From Stegostoma tigrinum (Eukaryota), in assembly GCF_030684315.1 (NCBI RefSeq), contig NC_081357.1, forward strand, positions 95,038,930 through 95,102,929: a DNA stretch of 64,000 nucleotides. The letters are read 5' to 3'. The notes beneath the pieces were generated by a model. The model ran no database searches, was not told where the DNA came from, and was given only the letters and a program-made list of their open reading frames with translations. The position numbers and the translations under genes were made by a program. Positions within the stretch are counted from its first letter, which is position 1. The number at the start of each line of letters is the position of its first letter. Shown here in pieces: positions 3,930-63,614 of the stretch.

Positions 3930-5250
3930 TCGGGAGTGGTGAATATACTGACCATTGTGCAAGCGGTAGTGGACATCCCCACTTCTGAATTTAAGACATA
4001 GGGAAGGGCATTGGTGAAGCAGCTGAAGGCACTAATGCCTCAAACACTACCCCAGGAGGAATATCTGCAGTGATGTCTTGTGACTGAGATGATTGTCCTC
4101 AAACAACCACAACCATCTTCCACTGTGCAAGCTATGACTCCAACCAGTAGAATGTTTGCCCCTAATTCCTATTGATTCCAGTTTTGCTAAAGCTCCTTGA
4201 CGCTACACTTGATCTCAAGTAGCCTTGATGTCAAGGGCTATTACTCTTGCCTCATCTCTGCAATTCAATTCTTTTTGTCCATGTTTGACCAAGGTTGTAA
4301 TGAGGTTGGGAGCTGAGTGAGCCCTGGCAGAACCCAAACTGGGAATCAGTGAGCAGATTATTACTGATCAATTGCCATTTGATAGAACTGCTGATTGGCA
4401 TCTTCCATCACTTTACAGATGATGCTGTAATTGGCCAGGTTGGACAAGGCTTGTTTTTCCAAGGACCAGATTTCATTGAAAAATTTTTCATTGTCTGTTA
4501 GAAGCAAGTATTGTAGTTGTACCCAGAACAGCTTAGGCAGGACTGGAGGAGACACTGATAGGGTGATGGGAGAGTTAAAATAGTATCAGAGATAATGGGA
4601 ACTGCAGATGCTGGAGAATTCCAAGATAATAAAATGTGAGGCTGGATGAACACAGCAGGCCAAGCAGCATCTCAGGAGCACAAAAGCTGACGTTTCGGGC
4701 CTAGACCCTTCATCAGAGAGGGGGATGGGAAGGGTCTAGGCCCGAAACGTCAGCTTTTGTGCTCCTGAGATGCTGCTTGGCCTGCTGTGTTCATCCAGCC
4801 TCACATTTTATTATCTTACACTGATAGGGTGATAATTGGTTAGTTGTATGTGTCTTGCTTTTTCTTTTTTCTGCTTTGACCGGACAGGTGGACAATTTTC
4901 CATATTGCAGATAAGAAGCAAGTGTTGTAGCTGTACTGGAACAGCTTGGCTATAGGCTCAACTAATTCTGGAGTACAAATAAAAACCAAATGAGCTGCAG
5001 ATTCTGGAAATCTGAAAAGGGTCATTGAACCCAAAACGTTAACTCTGATTTCTTTTTGTTTCCGGAGTACAAATCTTCACTACTACTGCCGGAACATTAT
5101 CACGGTCACAGGCTTTGCAACAATCAGTGCCTTCAGCTGTTATTTGATATCATGTGGGGTGAACTGAGTTGGCTGAATACTGGTGTCTTTGATAGAGGGA
5201 TCTCAGGATGACATTGAGATGATCATCCACTTAGCACTTTTGGCAGAATA
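3930..5250 (-). mobile_element. L2-type LINE RT fragments, interrupted by a palindromic element
   Basis: Similar to the 8265-10065 element (e.g. cccacttctga..., gccttgatgtcaagggc). Confidence 0.65.
4589..4817. mobile_element. Young palindromic Penelope-derived non-autonomous element with hammerhead core
   Basis: Perfect 89-bp inverted arms 4623-4711/4729-4817; 16-bp direct repeat ACACTGATAGGGTGAT at 4552-4567 and 4818-4833. Confidence 0.85.
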
Positions 5251-12134: not shown

Positions 12135-15100
12135 CTGTTCGAAATACAGAGGTTTTAAAGAGTTAGAGACCTTCTGTGGCATTGCACCCAGAGTCAAGAC
12201 CAAGTGAAGGTATTCAGGTGAAGCAGGTTTCAATATAGGTAGTTAAGAACAGACTGAGGCAATTTGTTTCACCTCCTCGGAAATGATAGAATTCACTCCC
12301 CAGCGGTACTTTGGATATACTGAGCATGTGAACTGCAGCAGTAATAAAAAGCAGCTCTTGCACCTGCTTAATAATACAAATAGGCTATCTTCATAACCAT
12401 TTAAAAGTGGAATAATCAGCTTGTGACTTGGTAAGAATTCCTGGTATCCAGCACAAAAATCACAGGCAGTAGGAACATTGATATCCTGTAGAATAGTCTA
12501 CGCTGAAACTGAGGGGAGAAGGGTCAGTGAAGATTCATTCATTCCAATATTAATATAGATGGAAAAATATAATTTGGATGTAATAATGGAGACTGTTTCT
12601 GCTTTGACAGTCAGTGTGAGTGGGTGACCTGACCATGGTCTTCAAGTTTACACAATGTGGCTGAATTGTCTGCAATCAGCATCATTGTTCCTTTCTAATT
12701 TTCAAGTTAGTGCCACCTATGAAGTCTTGACTTTTCATACTAACACAGTTACCATGGCGGAACTCTAGCCTAAGCCAGAAAGCCATGGGTTCAAGCCCAA
12801 CACCAATACCTGAATACACACCCTAGACTGACACTTCAAGGAAGTGCATCCTGGTATTCTGACCAATGACAATCCTTCAGCCCCAATAAATCGGAAATTT
12901 GGCAAGGTCACAATATTGTGATGGACTTTTAATCCTCTGCAACATTACATATTCCAGGTCACATGTAGTCTGGCAAAGTTAGTTGTATCAATTTGCCTTT
13001 TATCAATTGGTTGCAGTGCATCCAAGTGCCATGGAGTGTCTTGCCCTTCTGTTGGCCAAATAGAATGACAGCCCTTTCCCTGAGCATGGATAGGATTTGT
13101 AGAACACTGACAAGTGAAACTGTTTTGAACTATTCACTCCCTTCTCTTTTCAGTCACTCACACCAGCATATTGCCCAAATGAGACAGGAAGTTCAGTGCC
13201 ATTAACAGAGGTGTTCAGTGCAGTAATTTGGAAACATTTACTTTACAATCACTGGTTAGTCTCAGCACTAAAGATTGTTTTTGTCTTGGGACTGTGTAGG
13301 CATGGCAGCCTTTTCAAATGAGAGTTAATGTTCCACTCGCAGCTGATCATTGTTACATCTGAAGTTTTTATTTTTTTTCAGTAATTAAAACACATGTAGT
13401 GTTTCCCCTTGATTGAATTATACATTAGTAATCTGGTTATGTAAAGTGCATTTGAATATTACTTGATGTTTAAATACTTCCCACATGTTAATAAAAGCAA
13501 AAAAATACTATTGATGTGGGAAACCTGAAACAAACAATGGAGAATGCTGAAGAAACAGGTCTGGCAGCATAGTTGGAAAGAGAAACCAAGTTAACGTTTT
13601 GAGACCAGTGGGAGTCGTCTTCAGAAATGTGAAAGATCAAAGGCTATCGTTGATAAGCAGCTCCCACATCAGATCAGCCATGCCAGCTCAATGACAGTTT
13701 GATAACAAGAACCTCTGCAAGTCAACAACCAAGCTGATGTGCAGACTGTACTTGGGCTGCGCCCAGACTTTGATTGGTATCAACAACATGGAAGAGTTCT
13801 GGGGAAATTCTAATATCTACCCCTGCATCCCCAATACAGGACTGTCAAGCTGACACTGGTGTCTTCCTTGAACCCACCTATCATTCTGGTAAATATCTGC
13901 AATGTTAACTTTGATGAAGTGGACACTATTTGAATGACCTAAAAGCATCTCTCCCACGAGAACCTGTTTTCTTAAAATTCAGATGGCTAACATTCCAGAG
14001 GAGGACAAAGAAAACACTAGAGGTACTCTGAAGGTCTCCTTGACATGCAGTCATAATGACTGGGAAGGGCTTGCTACAAATTATTTAAAATGCTGAAGCT
14101 TTTCCCAATGAGCTGCATTATGCCTGGTCACTGCATCTTGAGGTAATGCTGGCAGTAAAATAGAAAAGTAAGCAAATCCCACATTTTGGATCCATTACCT
14201 CACATATTGTCATGTTCCACATATCAAAAGATCTGAGTAGACATGATCCTTGCATTGAAGAATAACCAACAATAGCACCTTTTTTTACATAAACACTGGA
14301 TTGTAGTGTTTAACCCTCTCTGCTGTGAGTTAGTTTGCCTCCACTTCAGCTGTCAACTGATTCAGGGTGACAGCGCAACAGGGCCCAGTAGCATTGAAAC
14401 AAAGTGTTGGTCCAAAACATGGGTCCAAGTAGCAGTAAGAGATGAGTGATGAAAGCACTTTGGAAGTGAGTTTTAAATAACAAAGTTTTAACTCTGTTTC
14501 ACTGCATACGTTTAACTATTCAGCTTCAAATTAGGCCTTTAAACTGTATATATGCAAAAGAGACTACACCATCAGACAAAAGATAAGACTGACATAGCAA
14601 ATAATATCAAGGCTTATTTAAATGATTGAAAGATGATAAATAAATCAAAAATGTACAGCAGACATCTATAAATTTGAATGGTCAGCCCAGGCAGAAGTGT
14701 AAATCTACCTCAGTTTCCCGAGCTAACAGCAATTCTCTGAAATTGTGGGAACACTCAGTACCAACAAAAGCCAGTTTCACGCTTATGACTGTTGTAACCT
14801 TTAAGTTAGCTTTACCCAAGGTTGCTTCAGGCACATTATTTCGAGCCAATTGGTTGTTGTTGCATTAACTTTGTTGAAATTAGTGCTTATGCACATTGTT
14901 TCACTCCTGGGAGTAATGGACTTGTCCACGAGATCCCTCTTATCTGATTTTGTACAAGCCTTCATTCATTCTCTGGACATGCCATCCAGATGGTCAAGGT
15001 CAAATGGAACTTACAAGTCATATATTATCTGAATACTCCGTTCCTACAGAGAAAGCTTACAGCAGCAAAATAATACATTAAACTCCAAACCTTAGTAAAT

Positions 15101-19231: not shown

Positions 19232-22200
19232 ATACAGTGTGGAGCTGGAAAGTCAACATTTCAGGGCTAGACTCTTCATTAGGACTGGGGAGAGGAAAAA
19301 GAGCTGGGAAATACAGAGAAGAGGGGTGGGGCTGTGGGAAGACGATAAATGGATGCAGTAGGGGTAAGCAGGAAGGGTGAGGCAGATAGGTGGGGAAGAA
19401 GATGGGCAGATTGCGTCAGGTCAAGGAGGCAGGGATGAGAGGGAGGGTTAATCATGAGATGCAGCTGGGGTGGGTGAGGAGATTTTAAAACTGGTGATTT
19501 CTATGTTTCAACCTTCAAGCTGTAGGCTCCCAGGGCAGAATAGGAGGTGTTGATCCTCCAGTTTGCGTGTGGCGTCTTTGTGGCACTGGAGGGGGCCCAG
19601 GATGGACATGTCACCCAGGGGGTGGTGTGGAGGGGAGGTGAAGAGTTGAAATGGTTGCCATCCAGAAGGTGTTATTGATTAGAGCATACAGAGTGCAGAT
19701 GCTCCGCAAATCTGTCACGGAGTCTACTTTTGGTCTCACCGATATAGAGCAGGCCACATAGGGAGCAATGGATACAGCAGACCAAGTTGGAGGATGTACA
19801 GGCGAAGTCCTGTTGAATATGGCAAGTTTGCTTTGGGCCTCAGATGGAGGGGAGAGGGAGGCATAGGGGCAAGCATAGCACCATCTGTGGTTGCAGGGAA
19901 AGGTGCCGGTTGTGGAGGAGTTAGTGGGGAGTGTGGAGTGCACGAGAGAGCTGTGGAGTGAGCTGTCCCTATGTAAGCTGGATAGGGGTGGGGAGGTAAA
20001 TCTCTCTTTGGTGGAGGAGTCAGATTATAGGTGGTGGAAGTGGCAGAGAATGATACACTGGATGAGGAGGTTGGTGGGGTGGTATGTGAGGACAAGAGGG
20101 ATTCTGTCTTTATTTTTGTTGGGAGGAGGAGGTTTGAGAGCAGAAGTGCAGGAAGTACAAGGAATGTCCGGGAGTAGATCGCTCCATCTTGGCAGCAGAT
20201 ACAGCAGAGGAATTGGGAGTAGGGGATCATATTCTTGCAGGAGGGTGATTGAGAGGATGTGTAGTCAAGGTAGCTATGGGAGTTGGTGGGTTTGAAATAG
20301 ACGTCAGTGCTGAGATGGTTACCGGATATGGGAACAGAGATCCAGCAAGGGGAGGGAGGAATCGGAGATGCTTCAGGTAAATTTGAAGTTGGGGTAAAAG
20401 GTGGTGGTAATGTTAATGAACTGTTCAAATTTGTCATGGGAAGACGAGGCAGTGTTGATACAGTCATAGCTGTAGCCGAGTAAGAGGTGCTGGTGTAACA
20501 GTGGAAGAGGGGCTGCTCACGTATCCTATGATGAGGCAGGCATAGCTCGGACCCATACGGGTATCCATAGCCACGCCTTTAGTGTGTAAGAAGTGGGAGG
20601 AGTTAAAGTAAAAGGGTTGAGGGTAAGGACAAGTTCCAATGAGTGGATGAGTTTGTTGGTAGAGGGGGACTGGTTGGACCTGTGGGACAGGAAGAAGCGG
20701 AGGGCTTTTAGGCCATCGTGACTGGATGCCCATGGTGAAGAGACAGAGACACAGATAGAGGAGTACGGTGGAGCAGCCTAAAAGCCCTCTGCTTCTTCCT
20801 CTCCTGCAGGCCCAACCAGTCCCCCTCCGCTGACATCCTCATTCCTCATCCACTTAACAGAATTTGTCCTTACCTTGAACAACTTCTCCATTAACTCCTC
20901 CCACTTCCAACAGACTAAGGGCAGCCATGGGCCCAAGGTATGCCTGCCTCTTCATGAGATACATGGAACAGTCCCTTTTCTGCTGTTACACTGGCACTAT
21001 CCCCCACCTCTCCCTCCACTACATTGATGACTGTATTGGCATTGCCTGTGCTCCCATAAGGAGCTTGAACACTTCAACTTTACTAACAACTTTTACGCCA
21101 ACCTCAAATTCACCTGGACTATCTGTTACCTCCCTCGAATTTCTGGACCTCTGTCTCCATTTCTGGTAACCACCTCGAAACTGATATCTATTTCAAGCCC
21201 ACCGACTCCCACAGCTACCTGGGCTACACCTCCTCTCACCCACTCTCCTGCAAGAATGCGATCCCTTACTCCCAAGATATCCCAGGACACTCCCTGACAT
21301 CCCAGATGTCTTCCTAATTCAAGGGCTGCAACTTGCCCCCTCCAGTGATCAAAAATGCCCTCAACTGCATCTGTTGCATTTCCCACACTTCTGCCTTCAA
21401 ACACTTTCCCCCACAACGAAAATAAAGACAGAATTCCCCTGGTCCTCACATCACCTCACCAACCTCTGCATCCAGCATTTATTCGCCACCTACAAACCAA
21501 CCCCAAGGAGATATTTCCCTCCCCACTTCTATCTACTTTGCGTATGGGACACTCTCTCTGTAAATCCCTTGTCCGCTCCACACAAACCCCACAACCCCCA
21601 GCACTTTTCCCTGCACCTGCAGGAAGTGTTAGAGCTGCACCTACACTTCCCCTCTTACTTCCATCCAAGGCCCAAAGCAAACCTTTCATATTCGACAGGG
21701 GTTCACCTGTACATCCTCCATCTTGGTCTACTGTATCCGCTGCTTCCAATGTGGCCTCCTCTACACTGATGAGACCAAGCATAGATGTGGTAACTGTTTT
21801 GTAGCGCATCTGCGCTCCATACAAGGACAACACCTTCTGGTTGCAAACTATTTTAACTCCCCTCCCCACTCCCGGGGTGACATGTCCATCCTGGGCCTCC
21901 TCCAGCACCACAATGACACCACCCACAAATTTGAGGAGCAGCACTTCATGTTCCGCCTCGGGAGCCTACAGACTGCAGGCCTTAACATGGAATTCACCAG
22001 TTTTAAAATATCCCCACCCCTGACCTCATCCCATGTCCAACTCTCCTTCTCGTTTCCGCCTCCTTGACCTGACAACTCTTCTCTCCCACCTAGCCGCCCC
22101 ACCTATCCCACTGACCAATCCCCATCACTCTCTACCTGCACTCACCTATCATCATCCCACCTACCTTCCCCAGGCCCACCCCTCCTCTCTACTTATTTCC

Positions 22201-22345
22201 CAGTTCCCTTCCCCTCCCCATTTCTGAAGAAAAGTGTCAACCTGAATGTCAACTTTCCTGTTCCTCTAATGCTGGAAGACCTGCTGTGTTCTTCAGCTCT
22301 ACAATGTGCTGTGTCTGACTCGAGCATCTACAGTTCTTGCTATCC
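19232..22345. mobile_element. Penelope-like element, degenerate inverted pair (minus copy ~19232-20740, plus copy ~20770-22345)
   Basis: RT motifs (MGPRYACLF, YIDD), GIY-YIG endonuclease VYCIRCFQCGLLYTDET...H; both copies end in a degenerate hammerhead-bearing terminal segment. Confidence 0.85.
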
Positions 22346-28552: not shown

Positions 28553-29043
28553 GTAAGAATTCGAATAGACGCCGGGTTTTGGGCCTAATCGTAGAGGGTA
28601 CTGATGTTAAACGTGTTGAACAGAGACAGAAAAACCAAAGAACTGAGGATGCTGGAAATCAGAAACAAAAACAGAAATTGCTGAAGAAAACTCAGCAGGT
28701 CAGGCAGCGTCTGTGAAGAGAAAGCAGAGTTAACCTTTCGGGCCTAGTCACCCTTCTCCAGTTCTCAAGTTAACTCTGCTTTCCCTCCACAGGTGCTACC
28801 AGACCTGCTGAGTTTTTCAAACAGTTTCTGTTGATGAGAGACAGGCCGTACTACTGAAAGTGTTTAATCTCTATTTAGTAAACAACTTATTTCCCAGGCT
28901 TTTCTTAGCTGCTATGAGTGCTGAAGAGAGTCGCTAGACCTGAAAGGTTAACTTTGCTTTCTGTGCACAGATGCTACTGATTTTCTTCTAGTGAAATAGT
29001 TGTCGCTTTAGCTGAAAGTAGTTACAATAATTTGTTCATGTTA

Positions 29044-37512: not shown

Positions 37513-37697
37513 TTTGCTGTGGTTGGTTTGTTGTTCTGCAGATGTTTCATTATCTTGCTGGGTTGGGAAACACAACTGCGCTTCATCAGAGGCTGCACTG
37601 ATGATGTTACCCAGCAAGTTAATGAAATGTCTGCAGAACAATGAACCAGCTCGGTGAGCCAACCATCCACGACCTGAGCTACAAATTTACTCAAAAA
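37513..37697 (+). mobile_element. Short fold-back element from a second Penelope-like family, with hammerhead core
   Basis: 10-bp TSD CTAATCACCT (37503-37512, 37698-37707); matches the 3' end of the 61957-63614 element. Confidence 0.8.
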
Positions 37698-37899: not shown

Positions 37900-38582
37900 G
37901 CCATCATAAGGATTCCACGCAAGTTAACTTTTGGTACTTTTAGTTTGAAAATTATCGCTCCACAACAGATCATCTTCCTCTCCTTGTTGAACATGCTAAT
38001 CCACAGTTTTGAAACAATCTGATGCTATATTGTGCCTTAATAACAACTCACAATCTGATGACAAAACTCCAAGCAGGATTCCGTGTGAAGAATTTTTTTT
38101 CTTCTTGATCAACCATCCAATGATTTCATTTGGCACGAACATGATCCTCGAATGTCTTGTGGCTGCATACACTTAGGTTTATTTCTTAGTCAGTGCCTCT
38201 TTGTCTCAACAGTTATATGGAATCCGAACATGTCCTACACTAGTCAGCCATGTCCTTTATTCAGGCACCTTAGTCAGACAAAGAAGCACTGACTAAGAAA
38301 TAAACCTAAGTGTATGCAGCCACAAGACATTCGAGGATCATGTTCGTGCCAAATGAAATCATTGGATGGTTGATCAAGAAGAAAAAAAATTCTTCACACG
38401 GAATCCTGCTTGGAGTTTTGTCATCAGATTGTGAGTTGTTATTAAGGCACAATATAGCATCAGATTGTTTCAAAACTGTGGATTAGCATGCTCAACAAGG
38501 AGAGGAAGATGATCTGTTGTGGAGCGATAATTTTCAAACTAAAAGTACCAAAAGTTAACTTGCGTGGAATCCTTATGATGGC
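37900..38582. repeat. Long inverted repeat, 307-bp arms, 69-bp spacer
   Basis: 37900-38206 is the reverse complement of 38276-38582; two mismatches seen by eye. Confidence 0.95.
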
Positions 38583-42217: not shown

Positions 42218-43937
42218 GTAAAGCAATTTTTGTTTTATCAAATCTTATTACAAGCTTTATTAAAGATTGCATACGATAATTAAGACAAGAAATCATCTTG
42301 AAGAACACCTTTTTCTAGTCTCTCTCCCTCTTCTTTCCCCCTTACCCCCATTCCAAATAAGAGTGCGTGGATATTTGGTGAAGGAACCTAAAGGGGTTAG
42401 GTTGTGGTTCCAACTCTGTAATAGGCTACTGGTGGTCACCATCAAAGCTGGTATAAGCAACGGTCACTGGGACAGGGACTCGGTGACAAGACAGCATTTT
42501 CAGGAGTACAAGCACTAAACTGGAGAGGAGCAAAATATCCTGATTGTTCAGGACTCTTCTGATGTGAAACATCAAAGTTCCTCCTCCTCCGATGCTGCCT
42601 GACCTGCTGTGTTCCTCCAACTCCACATAGTGTTGTCTCTGACTCCAGCAGCTGCAGCTCTTGCTATCTCATCCTGATAGTACATATGTTTTTATTTATA
42701 TCACTGTCATATGCACAACTTGTTAAATTCTGTGTGTCAAACCCATTAGTGCTTTATTGGAACTACATGCGCCTAGTTTTGTGCCTTTTGTGTGCTAATC
42801 CTGATGGTTTGGGAACAATTGAATTTGCTGCTGCATTGGAGCCCACTCATTCTCATTGAGCTGAGAGTGAATGTTCCCAGCGATGATTTGAGAGCAACGC
42901 TGGTGAAATACAGACAAAGGCTCAATTCAAACAAAATGCTGTCCCGAATGTTCTCCATTTTTCTTTCTTTGTTCTGTACAGTTTTTTTTTCATGTATAGT
43001 TCCTGTAAGATTGCTCATGGTCATGGCAGTCTCATCTTAAAGATTGCATGCACCTAGTTTGTTGCACTGCACGATAGATTACAATCACCACCTTCACTGG
43101 CCTCAACTCAAACAATAACACCAATCCCTTCATTGAACCCATCCATATTTGAGTGATCAGCACTGTTTCTTCAGAGGTTTGGGGATTCAAGTCCTCCATC
43201 ATTTCCTTAAGCACAGAATGTAGGCTAATATTCTGGTGAAGCAATAAGGGATGTTGCAGTGTCAAAGGTGTACTTTTTGTCTGAGAACTTAAATAAGAAC
43301 CCATCTCCCTACATAGGTAAATGCAAATAATTTTGTGGCATTACTTTGAGAGCAAGCTAGAAGAATTTTCCTGGTGACCTGGCCATATGTATCCCTCATC
43401 CAACATCAGATTGATTATTTATGACATTGCTGTTTGTGGAGTCTTGCTGTGCACAGTTTCACTGTAGCATTCACTGTCTTCTAGCATTAACAAGTGTCCT
43501 CATTAAAACAATGCACTTCAAAAAATGACTGAAATGCTATGGAAACTATTTAGCTCACGAAAGCTGATTTTTAAATGGATATTCTTTTGAACCACTTGAT
43601 TCTTGGCTGTTGTCATCGTCCCACATTACAATTCACACTGCCTAAGACCCTTAAGACAAGAATTGTTCCCTTCATTTTCAGTAGGAACAGAGTGAATTAC
43701 CGGGTCTGGTGTAGGAGAAGGCGATATATTATTAATCTAGAGTGGGAGAATGCAGTGAGTGACCATATCAGGATCACAGGAGTACAATGCGTTTTCACAT
43801 CTGCAGTACAGGAGCAGTGGAGCGCAGGAATGCAGTGAATGATTCCTTGTGGATTGCAGGAATATGGTCTGTGATTAAGTCACAATTTCCTTTGTTGAAG
43901 GTAAGCTTGTTAATTGAAAGTGTTTTCTTGTTTTCAG

Positions 43938-51459: not shown

Positions 51460-53566
51460 ACTTCATGCCACATCAATCAGGCCTTCAGTTCTGTGTATAT
51501 TGGCAACTTCGATTCGAGCAGAATTTGCTTTATGCACCAATACTTTGTGCTTCATTTTATACCGGTAAGCAGTTAGCAATGCAGACCACTTTTTAACATG
51601 CTGGCTACTGCCCAAATGTTGTAAAGGTAAATGGCTCATGTCCAGCTTTGTGAATGACAGCCCCACCCCCATAAGCTTTGCATATAAATCCTGCATGTGA
51701 GGGTTTGGGTATTTATCCAGCTGCAAGAGGTTGTCTACCATTTCTTTAAAATCCCCACACAGGTATACTAACCAGTCAGGCTTCACAATTGGCATGACCA
51801 GTGCATCCAACTGTGCCAACTGTACTGGAGTTTGATGATTCCTTCACTTTCCAGCCTCTGAATTTCGGCCTCTACTTTTACCTGTAAAGCAAATAGTACT
51901 GAGCACTGGTTTTCTGAAGAAGGGTCTAGGCCCGAAACGTCAGCTTTCCTGCTCTTCTAATGCTGCTAGGCCTGCTGTGTTCATCCTGCTCTACACGTTG
52001 TTATCCTAGCACTGGGCAGGCCTTGCAGAATCATAAAATTGCTCTTGGTCCCTATGTAAAGTGGCTTTGGCTCCTTTGATAGTCTCTAGACCTTCCTGAA
52101 AAATATCTGGGTTAATTAATTAGAACTTCACTCAGGCAGCTGTTTTCTCATCAAAATGTTGAGCCAATCAATGTGAGTTTTTCTCAACCAACTTATTCCC
52201 GTTAGGTTTGGGCCGAAGCCTTTTACTACAACCAAACCGGTTGCTTCTTACACAAGACTGAGACCAAAATTGCACCTTTAATCTATAAGGGTTCTCAGTC
52301 AAGCTAAGGTATTATGCAAACTTAAGTGCTGGAGTCTAGAGTGAATTTTGTTAAAGACTGGTTCTGCACTCTGATACAACTGCATCAGTACCAACCTCCA
52401 TTAGAACTGGGTGACCATTTAGCCAGATGTTTATTTTGATTGGTTCTGATTTGGATGTTGCAAAGCAATTAACTGTTTCAACTCAGAAGTAGGTGGATAC
52501 TGTTCTGGATGCTGGCGTACGAGTTCTCTAACTCAATTCAGGCCCAGTGGGACTCCCTAGCTGTCTCAAGTCTGCATGTGGGCAGCAACTACAATGGCTT
52601 GCCAGCCTAGATCCTGAAGAAAATGTTAACTGTTTGGCTGAGGCTTGGCTTTGTTTTGGGGTTTTGCAGTGGGCTGACTTAACATCCATCTATTCAGAGC
52701 ATGTCCTGAGTGAGACTGTACAATTGCCTTGACTGGTGTCCTCCAGGTCAGTTGGGCTAGCAAGGGACTCACATACTTTTTAATTAGTCTGTTCCCCTTG
52801 CTACATTTTCTACTGACAAAGCCAGTTGTGGTAGCTGTTTGAAGTTCAGTTGGACTTCATCTAATAAGTGCTTTTTGCATGATACTGTCATTAATCCCAC
52901 ATACCAAACAGTCTCGCAGCATCCCATTAAGGGTTAAATCAAATTTGTGTGCCTTTGCCAGTCATCTGAATGTTGTCAAAAATCCCAATATTGAATCCCT
53001 TTAGTTCTCAAATTGCTGAGTAAAACTAATGGCATCTCAGAAATAGAGGAGGCTTGGGATTGTAATATTCCTTAACTAAATCCATCAATTCTTCAAAGGT
53101 TTCAGTATCTGGTGCCTCAGGAAACATTAGGTTCCTGATAGCCAAAAATGCTGTGGTACCACAAGCTGTCAGGAGAATTACTCAGTGCTTTTCATCTGCT
53201 CCAGTGTCATTTGCCTGGGAATAACAATATTCTCCCTATATACTGGGCCCAGTCTTTGACATCAGGATTGAATGAGTCAAGCTCAACAAATAATGGCATT
53301 GTGCCAGGAATGCTTACCCCAATTCAAAAGTAAGCTAATTTCTTCAGAAGCATATTTTTAGTCTCTTATTGTCACTGAAATAACTTCACAGAGGCCGGTA
53401 TCCTGTCACCAATTCAACCCCTATTTATACATGGACAGTACCTGACACCAGTCTGGCTTTCTGAGAGTGAGCAGAACCTCTGAGACTCCTGCATATACCT
53501 GTCTGATTATCAGTCCCAATCATGGAACAAATATTCTATGAGATCCACCTGGTTGACCTCATTACA
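51460..53566 (-). mobile_element. Truncated Ty3/Gypsy LTR retrotransposon (5' LTR ~53376-53566, gag, protease, RT remnant)
   Basis: LTR begins TGTAATG on the minus strand; gag-like MPLFVELDSFNPDVKDWAQY; protease-like LNGHPVLMEVGT; RT LCGDFK...DKYP...FTKLDMSH. Confidence 0.8.
51910..52007 (+). mobile_element. Solo Penelope terminal segment with hammerhead core, inserted in the Gypsy element
   Basis: CTGAAGA-AGGGTCTAGGCCC-GAAACGTC at 51914; TSD AGCACTGG at 51902-51909 and 52008-52015. Confidence 0.8.
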
Positions 53567-53605
53567 ATCTTTGGAACTAGTGAAACCATAGAACAGCACT
53601 AGGAA

Positions 53606-53855
53606 GAGATAATGGGAACTGCAGATGCTGGAGAATTCCAAGATAATAAAATGTGAGGCTGGATGAACACAGCAGGCCAAGCAGCATCTCAGGAGCACAA
53701 AAGCTGACGTTTCGGGCCTAGACCCTTCATCAGAGAGGCTCTCTGATTGTTTCAATCAGAGGCTCTCTGATGAAGGGTCTAGGCCCGAAACGTCAGCTTT
53801 TGTGCTCCTGAGATGCTGCTTGGCCTGCTGTGTTCATCCAGCCTCACATTTTATT
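53606..53855. mobile_element. Young palindromic Penelope-derived element with two hammerhead cores
   Basis: 93-bp perfect arms 53645-53737/53763-53855; 14-bp TSD AACAGCACTAGGAA (53592-53605, 53856-53869). Confidence 0.88.
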
Positions 53856-54350
53856 AACAGCACTAGGAACCTGGGTTTGATTCCGCCCTCGGGCAACCGT
53901 CTGTGGAGTTTGTGCATTCTCCCGTGTCTGTGTGGGTTTCCTCCCACAGTCCAAAGAAGTGTAGGGTAGGTGGATTGGCCATGCTAAATTGCCAATAGCG
54001 TCCAGGGATATTTAGGTTAGATGGTGAAATGCAGGGGTAGGGGAGTGAGTTGTGGTGGGATGCTCTTTGGAAGGGCGGTGTGGACTTGTTGGGCTGAATG
54101 GCCTGTTTCCACATTGTAGGATTCTATGGAGACCATACCAACTCTCTAAAGAGCATCGTACCTAGGACCCCCCCACCAAATGCCTGCACTTCCCATGGCC
54201 ATCCCAGCTCACCTGCACACCTTTGGATTGTGCGAGGAAACCCACACAGACATGAGGAAAAAACTTGTAACCGCTACACAGTCGCCTGAGGCTGGATTGA
54301 GCTCAAGACTCTGGCATTGTGAGGTAGCAGTGCCAACCACCGAGCCACTG
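53856..54350. mobile_element. Two HE1/V-SINE-like SINEs, tail-to-tail
   Basis: Plus copy: GGTTTGATTCC B-box-like, TGTGGAGTTTG...TGGGTTTCCTCC core. Minus copy ends at a tRNA-like head (CAGTGGCTCGGTGGTTGGCAC). Confidence 0.7.
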
Positions 54351-56267
54351 TGATTTTCCCCTGGAATACTGCAAGCTGTTTTTGGTTCCCTTTATCTAAG
54401 GAAAGCTATACTGATACTAGAAGCCATCAGAGAAGGTTCACTAGACTGATTCTGGGAATGAAAAAACTGTCTTACGAGTAGAGGTTGGATAGGTTCGGCC
54501 TGTATTTGTTAAAATATAGAAGAATGAGAGGTGACCTTTTTGAAACATACGTGATTCTTATGGGACTGGACAACATTGTACATGTGGAAAGGTTCATTTC
54601 CTCTTGTGGAAGACTCTAGTTCTAGAAGGCATAATCTCCAAGCAAGAGGTTAAACATTCAAGAAACAGGTATGGGGGAATTTATTCTGAGTGTAGTGAAT
54701 ATGTGGAATTCTTTATCTCAGATGGCTTTAGAAGCTAGGTTGTTTCCCGTAAGCAAAAAAAAACTAAAATCAATTCTTATAACTGAAAGCAAGCTGAATA
54801 GTCTTGAATGTTCACTCTGTATTTGTAAACATCTCACCAATGCAAACACATTGCCGTTATCAGCCCTGATCGTGTCTCATATACACACTCATTTTAGAAA
54901 AAGATTCCAGAGATATTGAGAAGTTGTTGATAATGGACAAACTAGCAATGTGAAGAAATTCCCACTCTTTTGAGATTGCAGAGACATCAAGGTAGGAGGT
55001 ATTCAGTCTCCCGGCCCATCCACTCCCTCTCATATGACCGATTACATCCTTTTTTCTTCATTTAACTTTTGAATCAAATTCACTTTTTCTTCTTTCTGTG
55101 GGGGTGTATTTAGAGAGAGGTTGCAGGGAGCTGTTGAGTGGTGGATCCAGTCCATTCCTCGTGGCCATGGTAGTAATTGTTTCAGCAACTGTTCCAGCGT
55201 TGATGGGTTGGGGCCGGTTCTTTTCCTTTGGTGTTTTGGCAGCATCTGCAATTGCGGCAGAGTGAATGATCCTTTGATCCTGGGGAGTTCATTTGGATGG
55301 TGTGTCGGTCCTTGGAAGCTGAGAATGGACAGCAGTCTGTGAAAGTTGGGACAGTCTCCTGGCTATGGCGGCAGCTGGAGTATCAGTGATGATCAGGTAC
55401 CTTTGGCAGAGATGGTGTTGGGTCAGCAGGGGGTTACTTCAGTGTGCTTCCTCCTTGGTGTTGCAGCCTCATGGACAGTTTTGACACCTGCAGAGTAAGG
55501 CACATCAGGTAGTCACTTGTGAATTCAAGAAGCCATTGTTGGAACAAAAACATGAAATTTGTCTTGACTTAGTATGTATTATTTCTTTTTTATAATTTAT
55601 GTAATTAAAATGGTGCCAGATTAATTATGATGACTTAGGCATGTTTTGGCAGTATTTTTCATAAATACATGTAACAGTAAATTACTATGATAATAATATT
55701 ATATTTGCTACTACCCAATACCCAATGATCTACACATGACCACACTGTTTTGATTTGATGTATTGTCACATGTACCTAAGTACAGTGAAAAGCTTTGTTT
55801 GTGAGCAGTACAGGCTGATCATAGTAAGCAAGGGCATACAGATTATAGGGTGAAAAAGAAACTTTGACAGAGGAAGGTATACAGGTTACACTGCAAAGGC
55901 TGTGTGATAAGCAAGTTCAACATAAAACAAGACCAGCATTGTTTTAAGTTAGAGAGTCCATTCATTAGTCTATGTCGACTGTCTCCCTTTGTTTCTCAAG
56001 GTGGCATTTCAAAGATCTTTGTCAGCTGGTGGGTATCAATTTGCAATGGGTCAGTGATGATGCTTCTTGTGTCGCTAATCCTTCACATCTAACTTACCCG
56101 TTGTCATAAAGTGGACCAACACCTTCATCAATACTCTTCCTGACAGGAGGTGTCAGCTGAAGAGAAAATTAGTGGCATGTAGTTGGGATTCCATCCTTTG
56201 GAAAGGGGCACACATGGAACCAAAGAGACCTTGAAATATGAGATAACAAGGTGTAGAGCTGGATGAA

Positions 56268-57260
56268 CAGTTACTAGTGGTGTACCGCAAGGGTCAGTGT
56301 TGGGCCCACTGCTGTTTGTCATTTTTATAAATGACCTGGATGAGGGCGTAGAAGGATGGGTTAGTAAATTTGCAGACAACACTAAGATCGGTGGAGTTGT
56401 GGATAGCGACGAAGGATGCTGTAGGTTGCAGAGAGACATAGATAAGCTGCAGAGCTGGGCTGAGAGGTGGCAAATGGAGTTTAATGCAGACAAGTGTGAG
56501 GTGATGCACTTTGGTAGGAGTAACCGGAATGCAAAGTACTGGGCTAATGGTAAGATTCTTAGTAGTGTAGATGAGCAGAGAGATCTCGGTGTCCATGTAC
56601 ACAGATCCTTGAAAGTTGACAGGGTTGTTAAGAAGGCATACAGTGTTTTAGTTTTTATTAATAGAGGGATCGAGTTCCGGAACCAAGAGGTTATGCTGCA
56701 GCTGTACAAAACTCTGGTGCGGCCGCACATGGAGTATTGCATACAGTTCTGGTCACCGCATTATAAGAACGATGTGGAAGCTTTGGAAAGGGTGCAGAGG
56801 AGATTTACGAGGATGTTGCCTGGTATGGAGAGAAGGTCTTACGAGGAAAGGCTGAGGGACTTGAGGCTGTTTTCATTAGAGAGAAGAAGGTTGAGAGGTG
56901 ACTTAATTGAGACATATAAAATAATCAGAGGGTTAGATAGGGTGGATAGGGAGAGCCTTTTTCCTAGGATGGTGACGGCGAGCACAAGGGGGCATAGCTT
57001 TAAATTGAGGGGTGAAAGATATAGGACAGATGTCAGAGGTAGTTTTTTCACTCAGAGAGTAGTAAGGGAATGGAACGCTTTTTCTGCAACGGTAGTAGAT
57101 TCGCCAACTTTAAGAACATTTAAGTCATGATTGGACAAGCATATGGACGTACATGGAATAGTGTGGGTTGGATGGGCTTCAGATCGGTATGACAGGTTGG
57201 CACAACATCGAGGGCTGAAGGGCCTGTACTGTGCTGTAACGTTCTATGTTCTATGTTCTA
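56268..57260 (+). mobile_element. Young CR1 3' part with open 277-aa RT C-terminus, nested in a Penelope terminal segment
   Basis: ORF 56297-57130; (TTCTATG)n tail; closely similar to 23339-24325 in reverse complement. Confidence 0.93.
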
Positions 57261-57880
57261 ACACAGCAGGCCAAGCATCATCAGAGGAGCAGGAAAGCTG
57301 ACAGTTTGGGCCTTGACCCTTCTTCAGAAATGTGTGAGGGGAAGGGGATTCTGAAATAAATAGGGAGAGACAGGGAGGCAGATACAAGATGGATAAAGGA
57401 GAATATAGGTGGAGAGGAGACAGACAAGTCAAAGAGGCAGGGATGGAGCCAGTAAAAATGAGTGTAGGTGGGGAGTTAGGAAGGGGATAGGTCAGTCCAG
57501 GGAGAACGGACAGGTGAAGGGGGCGGGGTTAGATTAGTGGGTAGGAGATGGGGATGGGGTTTGAGGTGGCAGGACGGACAGGTTAGGGTTGCGGTCGGTG
57601 GAGGGGAGATTCTGAAGCTTGTGAAGTCAACATTAATACCATTGGGCTGCAGGGTTCCCAAGCAGAATATGAGTTGCTTTTCCTGCAACTTCGTGTAGCA
57701 TGATTATGGCACTGCAGGAGGCCCAGGATGGACATGTCGTCTGAGGAATGGGAGGGGGAGTTGAAATACTTTGCGACTGGGAGGTGCAGTTGTTTATTGC
57801 GAACCGAGCAGAGGTGTTCTGCAAAGCGGTCCCCAAGCCTCCGCTTGGTTTCCCCAATGTAGAGGATGCCACAACGACCT
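57260..57880 (-). mobile_element. Penelope-like element 3' fragment (GIY-YIG and terminal segment)
   Basis: CGILYIGETKRRLGDRFAEHL GIY-YIG motif in ORF 57583-57906. Confidence 0.85.
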
Positions 57881-58422: not shown

Positions 58423-59476
58423 TTTCCTGGGGCTCTGAACGCATTACAGAATAATGTTATATTACACACACCGGCCGAAGCTTTACGGGGCACGCACCGT
58501 GGGTTCGGCAGGGGTTGCAGTATGACTCAGCTTTCAAAAATCTTCTTACCGATTAGTTACTTGATGGTGAATATTGTTTTACTGTCACCTCCGTTACAGT
58601 GGACTCTGAGTCGCAGGTTAGGGATTTAAGTCTTTCCTTCAGAGACTGAGTACAGAATTAAGGCTGACACCATCACTGTTAGTCTCTCAGATGAGACATT
58701 AACCCGAGGCTGGACCGCTCTCCTAGTTGGAACAACTGGGAGATGTGTATCTTTTCACAACCCGTTACCGGTCCCTTGGCCTTCTGCAGCTTTGTAAATG
58801 TTATCGCTGTTACATAGGAACAGGGCCAGACCATCCCATGAGCGTATGCATGGTTTACTTCATATCCCTGCTTTTCCCCATCTTCCTTACATTTTCCTCA
58901 AAAATCTGTCAATTTCTGTCTCGTTTAAATCACTTTGTATCATTTCGATTGCCTGTTGCTGAAGATAATTTGAAATTTCTAAGGCCCTGTTGAAGAGTAT
59001 CCTCATCCCTCTGCCGCAAGTCTAGCTCAGAGAGCCCCCTGTGCAGACAGAAGCAGAGTTAAAGTTTCAAATCCAGTGACCCTTTGTCAGAAGGATCATA
59101 ATCTGAAGGGTCATTGGACTCAACTATTTGCTCTGCTTTCCTCTCTCTCTATACAGATACTGACAGATCTGCTGAGTTTCTCCAGCACTTGCTGCTCGTT
59201 TCAAATTTCCAGCATCTGCAGTACTTTTATTAAGCTGTTTTATGTTGTTTGTATTATTGCTTTTTTATTGCAGTCTTAAATAGAGAATTGAAGGAAAAGA
59301 AATTGATCTAATATATCTGTAGAAATAACCTATATATTTTCTACACTAAACATGTTCTTATCAAAATGATCCTGGCGTTTCAATGTGTTAACTGGAACAT
59401 TTGATTGTAATGAAGGGAAATCCTTTATTAGTTTGTGAGTGTCTGAATTCTGCACATTCAGCAATGTTTCAATTAT

Positions 59477-61956: not shown

Positions 61957-63614
61957 GAGGTTGTAGCCTTGCTCACTGAGCCAGTGTGTTTGATTGCAGA
62001 TGTTTCATCATCCTGCTAGGTAACATTGTCAGTGCTTCCAGTGAAGCGTTGGTGTTCTGCCTTGCTTGGTATGTATATGCCTGTGTTTGCTGGGGTGGTT
62101 GGCATCACTTCCAGTTCTGTTTTTCAGTGGTTTGTATATCGGGTGCAATTCAATGTGTTTCTTGATGGAGTTCAGGTTGGAATGCCAGGCCTCCAGGAAT
62201 TCCCTGGCATGTCTCTGTTCCTGTTTCTCTATTAAATGCTCCTGTTATGCTTCGCGCAGACACCAGAATTGAAGAGGATGAGATAATGAAATTGTTCAAC
62301 ATAACAGCACTATTTACATCCATAACCATCGACCTAGCTGAAGAGACAATTGCCACACTGCTGGACAAATTAGAAAGGCGGGCACCCCACGACACCAACA
62401 GGGACAAAACCCTGAACCTGCTGGATCTGTGTCTCACAACCCACTTCGCCTTCAACGACCGTATATTCAAACAAATCAACAGAGCACCAATGGCATCCCC
62501 CACATCAGGACTGATTGCAGAAGTAGTAATGCACAGCTTAGAACAGACAGCACTCCCCACTATCCAACTCAAACACTGGGTCTAATATGCAGATAACACT
62601 TTCATGATTATCAAACGCTCCAGACTAGAAGAAACCCACTGACACATAAACAACATCCTCACTGGAATAAAGTTCACGAAAGGAGAGGAGAACAATAACT
62701 GACTACCCTTCTTAGACATAATGGTGGAAAATAAGAACAACGGGGAACTCCAGACCACCCATACAGACCAGATACTCAATTACACCAGCAACTACCCCAA
62801 CACCCATAAACAGAGCTACATCAGGACATTATTCAAATGGGCCACAACACACTGCACCAATCCGGAATTGCGCAAAGCAGAACAGGAACATTTTTAAAAG
62901 GAATGGACATCCAAAAAGCACAATCTGCCGTTACTGCAGCAACAGACCACAACAAGAAGACACAACACGGCCAGACACACTAGTCACCCTACTGTACATC
63001 AGGGACATATCAGAGATGACCACAAGACTGCTCAGACCCCTAGATATCAGGGTAGTCCAAAAACCAATAACCACCCTGCGACAGCTACTAACAAACGTAA
63101 AGGATCCCATACCCACAACCAATAAAACTAACGTAACATGCAAAATACCATGCAAGGTCTGTGAGAAACATTACATAGGCCAAACCAGAAGAAAATTGAC
63201 AATAAGGATATAAGAACATCAGCTAGCCACCAAGAGACACGACCAATTCTCACTGGTCTCAAAACACACAGACAAAGAAAGAAATGAATTTGACTGGGAC
63301 AACACATCCATAATAGCACCAGCCAAACGCCGGGGAATTCCTGGAGTTATGGCATTCCAGTGGAATTCCAACAACAAACATATTGAACAGGACCCGATAT
63401 ACAAACCACTGAGGAACAAAACCAGAAGTGATACCAAACACCCCAGCAAACCGAGGCATATAAATAACAAGTGGGACAAAACATCAGCGCTTCACTGGAG
63501 GTGCACTGACGATGTTACCTAGAGGGGTGATGAAATATCTGCAATTAAATACACTGGCTGGGTGAGCAAGTCTACAACCTCATCCACAATCTGGGCTACA
63601 AATCATCTCAAAAG
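61957..63614 (+). mobile_element. Penelope-like element (second family): RT, GIY-YIG and an inverted 3' copy at its 5' end
   Basis: FNITALFTSI, QIN.APMASPTS, YADNTF remnants; CKIPCKVCEKHYIGQT; inverted terminal copy ~61957-62240; TSD GGGATAACCTT (61946-61956, 63615-63625). Confidence 0.88.

Follow-up and report, generated by a model that had tools for sequence, protein, structure and literature searches.

The closest described relatives of the insertion considered here are the complex insertions of EN+ Penelope-like elements (PLEs), for which the literature gives as typical an inverted, truncated copy, a one-sided tail of 30-40 bp and target-site duplications (TSDs) of variable length (PMC8557442), together with palindromes at the inverted junctions (PMC3846280). 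Among PLE clades, a CX2-5CxxC linker marks Neptune and Nematis (PMC8557442), and a vertebrate survey names Neptune and Poseidon only (bioRxiv 10.64898/2026.07.22.740005). Minimal type-I hammerhead ribozymes usually have a helix I of 4-5 bp, the D. virilis Penelope hammerhead being a variant with 2 bp, and pairs of hammerhead motifs lying close together on opposite strands are also recorded in the same work (PMC4209133). Published work describes monomers as inactive and dimers as weak, with one of nine Xenopus dimers cleaved (PMC4209133, PMC11167929, bioRxiv 10.64898/2026.07.22.740005), and the ribozyme of an anole PLE as dependent on protein (PMC11167929). For that anole element, PAc (Poseidon of Anolis carolinensis), the same study has both target strands cleaved and extended, two start sites of reverse transcription bounding the tail, and hammerhead cleavage unneeded (PMC11167929). 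Non-LTR retrozymes are recorded in one chondrichthyan genome (bioRxiv 10.64898/2026.07.22.740005), and the origin of PLE inverted copies and tails, as well as the role of the hammerhead, is treated as unresolved (PMC8557442).

The locus compared here with these systems lies in a 64,000-nt stretch of zebra shark (Stegostoma) DNA, to which we refer as the window. We propose that the insertion at 53592..53869 is, very probably, the 3' end of a shark's Neptune-type PLE, inserted very recently in head-to-head form and with extreme 5' truncation, and that its palindrome is best read as a by-product of insertion rather than a replicating family. Its parts are as follows:

53592..53605, no strand: left TSD, 14 bp, its final A possibly derived from the element
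53606..53643, minus strand: one-sided 3' tail, 35-38 bp, which separates the family's long 3' end from its short one
53644..53737, minus strand: left arm, 3' end (part of the pLTR) of a Neptune-type PLE in minus-strand sense
53706..53733, minus strand: minimal type-I hammerhead core, intact, predicted scissile bond 53706/53705
53738..53762, no strand: centre junction, 25 bp, two overlapping copies of the arm-end palindrome with a short hairpin between them
53763..53855, plus strand: right arm, the same PLE 3' end in plus-strand sense, stopping at the short end without a tail
53767..53794, plus strand: minimal type-I hammerhead core, intact, predicted scissile bond 53794/53795
53856..53869, no strand: right TSD, direct-repeat match to 53592..53605

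The direct repeat AACAGCACTAGGAA is identical in 14 of 14 positions at 53592-53605 and 53856-53869, and a 14-mer match within 10 nt on either side of both insert ends would arise by chance with a probability of about 2.5e-6. Between the two copies lies an insert of 250 bp (53606-53855) that holds no ORF. Its arms are perfectly complementary over 94 bp (53644-53737 against 53763-53856), or 93 bp when the outermost pair, which falls inside the right TSD, is left aside. The sequence-only reading had described a 250-bp insertion with a 14-bp TSD and perfect 93-bp inverted arms, and this part of its description stands. It overlooked two things: the insert is asymmetric, with 38 bp (53606-53643) outside the left arm and none outside the right, and the centre is a duplicated palindromic junction, in which a 14-nt direct repeat recurs at a spacing of 24. 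The centre is not parent sequence; the parent's own continuation differs there. To the right, 53870-54350 presumably consists of two old SINE-like repeats in inverted orientation, with the insertion at the truncated 5' edge of the first, and the left flank (51463-51843 and ~53000-53570) holds what we take to be degraded, Gypsy-like remnants of LTR retrotransposons. These left-flank remnants occur at a moderate repeat level in all three organisms compared below. An empty site was looked for in public contigs: no joint spanning the whole insert appears among the 15 of 2320 contig joints displayed, and no listed contig bridges the locus.

The window holds other copies of the same family and of a second, Poseidon-type family:

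4568..4817, minus strand: sister fold-back insertion, 16-bp TSD at 4552-4567 and 4818-4833
19241..22345, both strands: old 3-kb head-to-head pair with RT and GIY-YIG remnants, same superfamily
37513-37697: Poseidon-type miniature fold-back, 185 bp, 10-bp TSD
42566..42675, plus strand: short, old 3'-end copy that begins within the core and has the tail
51910..52007, plus strand: single arm standing alone (solo), from an older subfamily, stopping at the short end, with an 8-bp TSD (51902, 52008)
56244..57876, minus strand: older 5'-truncated PLE copy with a GIY-YIG remnant (57876-57557), a pyrimidine-rich 3' region and a degenerate hammerhead (57328-57300)
61957-63614: Poseidon-type coding copy, 1.66 kb, with an inverted 5' copy, a tail of ~31 bp and an 11-bp TSD

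To judge from sequence comparison, the arms are the 3' end of a PLE that encodes RT and GIY-YIG. The predicted C-terminus of a zebra shark protein (P0003) continues through the 3' region into arm sequence, matching arm copies in 16 of 17 residues at 4725-4675, 14 of 16 at 53739-53692 and 15 of 20 at 53749-53808, and it carries the residues of the young subfamily (the 4.6-kb copy and the left arm, 53739-53692). This match places the host among the sharks, probably the carpet sharks. The older copy at 57876-57260 on the minus strand provides the same linkage at the DNA level, running from a GIY-YIG remnant through a pyrimidine-rich stretch to a 3' end with a degenerate hammerhead, 86% identical to the arm. 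The remnant itself (57876-57557) matches 39 of 47 candidate proteins, the best named matches being whale shark P0001 (90%) and P0003 (84%), followed by skate and devil ray. P0001, a relative of P0003 along which the window remnants align, has an RVT_1 match (E 9e-5, below cut-off) and a GIY-YIG match (E 9e-5, above cut-off); RT followed by a C-terminal GIY-YIG in one ORF is thus a property of the parent family and not of the insert. It also has a CX4CxxC linker and two cysteines ahead of the YIG motif, in keeping with the CX2-5CxxC linker and EN CCHH motif of Neptune, a combination shared with Nematis. Because the linker fits Neptune or Nematis and the vertebrate survey found only Neptune and Poseidon, the parent clade is probably Neptune, an assignment made from linker and survey rather than from RT phylogeny. 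Eight degraded frames of the window gave no Pfam matches (0/8), and the one match of a 62-aa frame, to GIY-YIG, was weak (E 0.009). These results bear out the proposal of the sequence-only reading that a Penelope RT/GIY-YIG protein was the machinery, as do the PLE traits found together here: a hammerhead in the pLTR or 3' end, a one-sided tail, an inverted 5'-truncated copy and TSDs of variable length. The 3' end of the older copy 56244..57876 is split at ~56270-57259 by a fragment with a 287-aa open frame, which we take to be a CR1-like LINE (56270-57259).

The sister insertion at 4568-4817 is identical to the insert over the tail and left arm (134 of 134 nt), and differs in having another centre, a 16-bp TSD, a right arm that begins within the core, and only one intact core; its left arm extends 14 nt past the core. 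Between its TSD and the usual tail end lie 20 extra bases (4568-4587), the first few of which resemble the post-tail sequence at 42675 and may be family sequence beyond the tail. The old 3-kb pair consists of a minus arm (20717-19241) and a plus arm (20776-22345) with a degenerate hammerhead and tail. TSDs of the Neptune-type family measure 8, 14 and 16 bp; the 3-kb, 37.9-kb, 42.6-kb and 59-kb elements were searched and showed no TSD, and a 12-bp repeat match at the 56-57-kb copy was not relied on as a TSD. When the 3' ends in the window are aligned they fall into two classes, short and tailed. At the other end, the start lies 4-5 nt before the core in both arms of the insert and in the 51.9-kb solo, and four of the five young or intermediate arms stop within ~4-14 nt of it, a clustering that simple random truncation does not explain. 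The window holds no head-to-tail tandem that would place two or more cores on the same strand, nor any partial tandem of the sort that creates direct pLTRs in active PLE copies. The same fold-back plan extends from 185 bp to 3 kb across the two PLE families. Within the window, then, the palindrome does not look like a defined family. The sequence-only reading had taken the 250-bp palindrome for a defined non-autonomous element, a claim that the sister with its other centre, TSD and right arm does not uphold, and the heterogeneous truncation products that it had named as the contrary outcome are largely what the window contains (solo, 1.6-kb and 3-kb forms).

Contigs of four public runs, all contigs included, were placed on 53000-54300, an interval that also holds other repeats; one run (X1) may be the window's own sample, and another (X5) has no library record. 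No RNA run is listed among those that contain the sequence, which carries no information on expression. Of X1, 180,944 records were placed, 94,648 of them fitting two places. Sequence is left at 53641 into varied flanks by 658 X1 records and at 53605 by 23 X5 records; these exits are the family's two 3' ends, ~36 nt apart. A further 339 X1 records, like the 4.6-kb copy, read on beyond 53738 into the body of the element. Among the 15 of 2320 joints displayed, 13 cross the centre and all 13 are distinct, with one to five X1 contigs each. Their X1 depth of 80-940, against 7.85-14.1 for exact single-locus contigs, is summed contig depth and not copy number; some centre junctions may exist in several copies, an outcome compatible with re-amplification and with recurrent microhomology alike. 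The commonest displayed joint, with 38 X1 contigs, is 53608/53641 on opposite strands: the tail end is fused 3'-to-3' to the short end without a spacer, and the 7-mer ATTATCT stands at both ends. Reading the fold-back as a by-product leaves this joint unexplained. At 53689, T>A accounts for 9% of the depth in organism A (X1) and 97% in organism B (X7), so that the young variant dominates in organism A and the older one in organism B, and in organism C the arms are nearly uncovered at 85% likeness. These shares point to a burst that is recent and restricted to one lineage. Several displayed joints lie ~10 nt or less from the predicted cut site (53697-53706, 53790-53804), at the palindrome AGCT. 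They could reflect cleaved templates or merely subfamily mismatches (53689, 53698), and since the latter could yield such joints we have set them aside as evidence of cleavage.

A hammerhead core does lie on each strand (53767-53794, plus; 53733-53706, minus), as the sequence-only reading had it. The plus-strand core comprises CUGAUGA, an extra A, a 4-bp stem II with a CUAG loop, GAAA, an ACGU helix-III half, a GUC site and a 2-bp stem I. The core nucleotides, the additional nucleotide that follows A9, the G10.1-C11.1 pair and the palindromic ACGU all fit the minimal consensus of Cervera and de la Pena (2014), which has CUGANGA, the same extra nucleotide and G10.1-C11.1 pair, GAAA, a palindromic helix-III half (15.2-16.2) and a NUH site (PMC4209133); this confirms a minimal, PLE-like type-I hammerhead with vestigial stem III. 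It departs from those hammerheads in its stem I of 2 bp, short of the usual 4-5 bp and as weak as had been suspected, in its 4-bp stem II, and in the opposed placement of the two cores, which cannot dimerise in cis. A relaxed minimal-hammerhead descriptor finds six sites in the 64-kb window, against a mean of 0.05 (maximum 1) in 60 first-order Markov controls, and all six are inside Penelope-like ends. Rfam covariance models, a check that the sequence-only reading had suggested, gave no such confirmation: no family reached its gathering score in the 64-kb window, and at relaxed E-values the interval 53400-54400 gave 18 sub-threshold matches, mostly to miRNA-hairpin models, with no hammerhead model among them. 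The miRNA-model matches are rejected here, since they merely match the hairpin shape and are all sub-threshold.

The whole insert is predicted to fold into a long hairpin of -220 kcal/mol, one of the two outcomes that had been offered for its transcripts, and the computed probability of the first stem-II pair within it is ~1e-21 on either strand, because the 94-bp hairpin outcompetes the hammerhead fold. When an isolated arm is folded, CUGAUG pairs with CGUCAG in an inactive form; a dimer with one active site is placed at -9.4 kcal/mol, whereas two monomers reach -22.8 and an inactive duplex -38.0. These energies come from a nearest-neighbour model that ignores core and protein contacts, and protein-assisted cleavage may therefore still occur in the parent RNA, as reported for the anole element. 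The two cores being on opposite strands, no single transcript of the insert carries both. Intact copies across the window subfamilies vary only at the free position 7 and by a U.G to C-G change in stem I; no compensatory change in stem II, which the sequence-only reading had looked to as a test, occurs among the window copies, and stem I shows one one-sided change. The hammerhead is, in sum, a genuine PLE motif that is masked by the hairpin in the insert, and both copies are in all likelihood passengers of the duplicated 3' end. Self-cleavage of insert RNA from either strand, which had been considered possible, is on these predicted folds unlikely. Since the scissile bond is kept in both arms, the template RNA would have been uncleaved or religated, which is in line, by analogy, with the anole study, in which cleavage is dispensable for insertion in vitro (PMC11167929).

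Hammerhead loci from other hosts offer some comparison. A pattern scan of metagenomes gave at least 123 loci, and the same scan of viral contigs gave none. Likeness to the insert is limited, among the matches listed, to ~30-50 nt around the core, so that these loci serve only as comparisons from other hosts. Exclusion of 27 of 123 listed loci for short flanks left 96 usable ones; among the matches listed, 17 of these 96 have an inverted upstream partner 15-739 nt away, and in seven of the 17 a direct repeat of 8-14 bp directly abuts one arm and lies 31-52 nt outside the other. The recurrence of such partners in other hosts marks the fold-back with tail and TSD as a general PLE footprint. Many listed loci adjoin pieces of Neptune-like ORFs, one of them (L006) aligning to P0001 over 451 residues directly upstream of its core. 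For stem I, 127 matches were reduced to 94 distinct ones with full flanks among those listed, and at least three stem-I pairs are found in 69 of these 94, against a mean of 19 (maximum 31) in 2000 partner shuffles, so that the motif class is under pairing constraint; the scan pattern left stem-I pairing free and fixed three stem-II pairs, which puts stem-II covariation beyond it. Strong stem-I pairing is seen only in the families of other hosts, and 25 of the 94 distinct matches listed have two stem-I pairs or fewer. A hammerhead from another host, L080:1493-1529, likewise has a stem I of 2 bp, and its cut site is followed by AGCUUUU as in the insert, which suggests that the 2-bp stem I represents a wider subtype.

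How might such an insertion arise? The TSD, the two 3' ends, the head-to-head arms, the non-parent centre and the origin from a coding PLE are the part of the mechanism that is shown, and the steps that connect them can be proposed. The GIY-YIG endonuclease would make staggered nicks 14 bp apart, as the TSD implies, and reverse transcription of uncleaved element RNA would then begin at the family's two 3' ends ~36 nt apart, their use as start sites being suggested by the anole element. Both target strands would be primed, one cDNA starting from the long end (tail and arm) and the other from the short end (arm only), and both would stop 4-5 nt past the hammerhead. Repair would finally join the two cDNAs with short templated strand switches, generating the duplicated palindromic centre. 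The template may have been either a full-length mRNA or a transcript of a truncated copy. Dual-strand priming with repair joining appears to us most likely, with a probability somewhat better than even, and it agrees with the behaviour of the anole protein, which cleaves both strands and extends them from two start sites at the edges of the tail. Alternatively, a single cDNA might have folded back on itself and been copied to the short end, a route that we rate as a less probable though substantial alternative; it fits because rotifer junction palindromes have been read as self-priming (PMC3846280). The arms being identical, the two routes are indistinguishable at this locus.

The by-product reading has to be weighed against readings in which some part of the insertion replicates. 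The fold-back unit might be a non-autonomous family, its 250-nt palindromic RNA, or that of like fold-backs, being transcribed and re-inserted by the Penelope protein in trans. In its favour, pLTR sequences alone can be mobilised in trans in rotifers (PMC3846280), PLEs are known to have non-autonomous derivatives (PMC8557442; bioRxiv 10.64898/2026.07.22.740005), some centre joints are far deeper than single-locus contigs, and the 3'-to-3' joint expected from tandem fold-back units recurs in 38 contigs. Yet the two young fold-backs of the window differ in centre, TSD and arm length, the 13 centre joints among the 15 of 2320 displayed are all distinct, a single plan is seen in two families at sizes from 185 bp to 3 kb, and a hairpin of -220 kcal/mol would mask the pLTR in the RNA. 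The one common centre found in other hosts, that of L038 and L112, comes with a common flank repeat, and the two look like one locus in two assemblies. We therefore consider such a family quite improbable. Slightly better placed, though still unlikely, is a SINE-like RNA of ~140 nt, from hammerhead to tail, transcribed from truncated copies and acting as the main template, the fold-back being the insertion form of a single-arm unit. The common start of three arms 4-5 nt before the core would suit it, as would a family that is very abundant and young in organism A, represented by an older variant in B and nearly lacking in C at 85% likeness; the 4.6-kb left arm that reaches 14 nt past the core, the 339 X1 records that enter the body at 53738 and the existence of longer copies speak against it, and a stretch rich in purines immediately beyond the core could make RT stall. 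A broader scenario joins these elements: fold-back or single-arm hammerhead stubs would be the replicating unit of a very young burst in the shark lineage, some palindromic junctions would be re-amplified in trans, and the 53608/53641 joint would be an undescribed circular or tandem intermediate of Penelope integration. We hold this scenario, too, to have only a small chance; if it is true, Penelope biology would gain a palindromic retroelement that is non-autonomous, or else a circular intermediate.

Two further readings concern the hammerheads and the inverted arms as such. If the hammerheads were active in the insertion, they would release a short RNA from either strand as monomer or dimer. 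The full core match to the minimal consensus (PMC4209133), the pairing constraint on the motif class (69 of 94 listed matches with at least three stem-I pairs against a mean of 19), and the confinement of variation among intact window copies to position 7 and a stem-I U.G to C-G change would agree with activity. Against it stand the 2-bp stem I, the predicted inactivity of the isolated arm and of the dimer, the placement of the cores on opposite strands so that two never share a transcript, the lack of compensatory stem-II change among window copies, and the inactivity of published monomers, the weakness of dimers and the protein dependence of the anole ribozyme (PMC4209133, PMC11167929, bioRxiv 10.64898/2026.07.22.740005); we regard activity in the insertion as very unlikely. 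Long, perfect inverted arms with a TSD might also suggest an assembly artefact, or else a MITE or other derivative of a DNA transposon whose terminal inverted repeats are long. The inverted repeat, however, is not terminal on the left, where the 38-bp tail intervenes, TSD length varies from 8 to 16 bp, and the arms correspond to the 3' end of a retroelement; the perfect TSD, the second independent fold-back and the fold-back joints in public contigs leave an artefact, like a MITE, with hardly any credibility.

Compared with the systems described at the outset, the by-product insertion proposed here agrees with EN+ PLE complex insertions, as set out in PMC8557442 and PMC3846280, in its head-to-head ends, one-sided tail (here 35-38 bp), variable TSD, junction palindrome and strong 5' truncation; unlike them it has no ORF or direct pLTR, both its arms are shorter than 135 bp, and its palindrome is duplicated. 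With Neptune PLEs it shares a parent in which RT precedes a C-terminal GIY-YIG (P0001), the CX2-5CxxC linker and a hammerhead in the 3' end, the parent being known here without an intact full-length copy and placed by its linker rather than by phylogeny. The likeness to PAc lies in two 3' ends that bound a tail ~60-100 nt downstream of the cut site and in the use of uncleaved RNA as template (PMC11167929); PAc belongs to a different clade, and the insert is known from the genome alone. Non-LTR retrozymes are likewise non-coding, hammerhead-bearing and derived from the PLE pLTR, according to the preprint (bioRxiv 10.64898/2026.07.22.740005), but they are head-to-tail tandems that carry two cores on the same strand, whereas the insert is a single head-to-head pair; with no head-to-tail tandem in the window, retrozyme identity is rejected. 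Our literature search, which had Repbase and most subscription journals outside its range, found no account of shark Penelope hammerheads or fold-backs, and the supplements of PMC4209133 and of the retrozyme preprint may list this shark family. Architecture and ribozyme are already published, and the insert is most likely an ordinary, heavily shortened copy of a PLE tail end and no new mobile ribozyme.

Taken alone, the locus is nothing unusual: stubs of this known class of transposon are very numerous. Its value lies in the material that it offers. A very young, abundant and near-identical family permits counting: of 5' ends relative to the scissile bond, of discordance between arms, and of re-copying of centres. 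Arms that differ within one insertion would mean two templates, and arms that never differ would mean fold-back copying. If the insertion is transcribed, its likeliest effect would perhaps be small-RNA silencing fed by the 94-bp hairpin, which hides both cores, by analogy with the Drosophila Penelope inverted repeats that yield small RNAs (PMC3681739). A genome with many perfect 90-bp hairpins would probably also give rise to small RNAs and to false microRNA calls.

Some other elements of the window deserve mention. The hammerhead of the Poseidon-type family at 63506 is better formed, with a 4-bp stem I and a 7-bp stem II. A young fold-back at 37900-38582 has arms of 307 bp (99% complementary) and a 69-bp centre, and shows no TSD, no hammerhead match and no second copy in the window. 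Old hammerhead-like ends of a further Penelope-type family are seen at 13520-13640, 28625-28836, 28927-28975 and 59040-59230; two of these are degraded head-to-head fold-backs, and an 8-bp repeat flanks the one at 28.7 kb.
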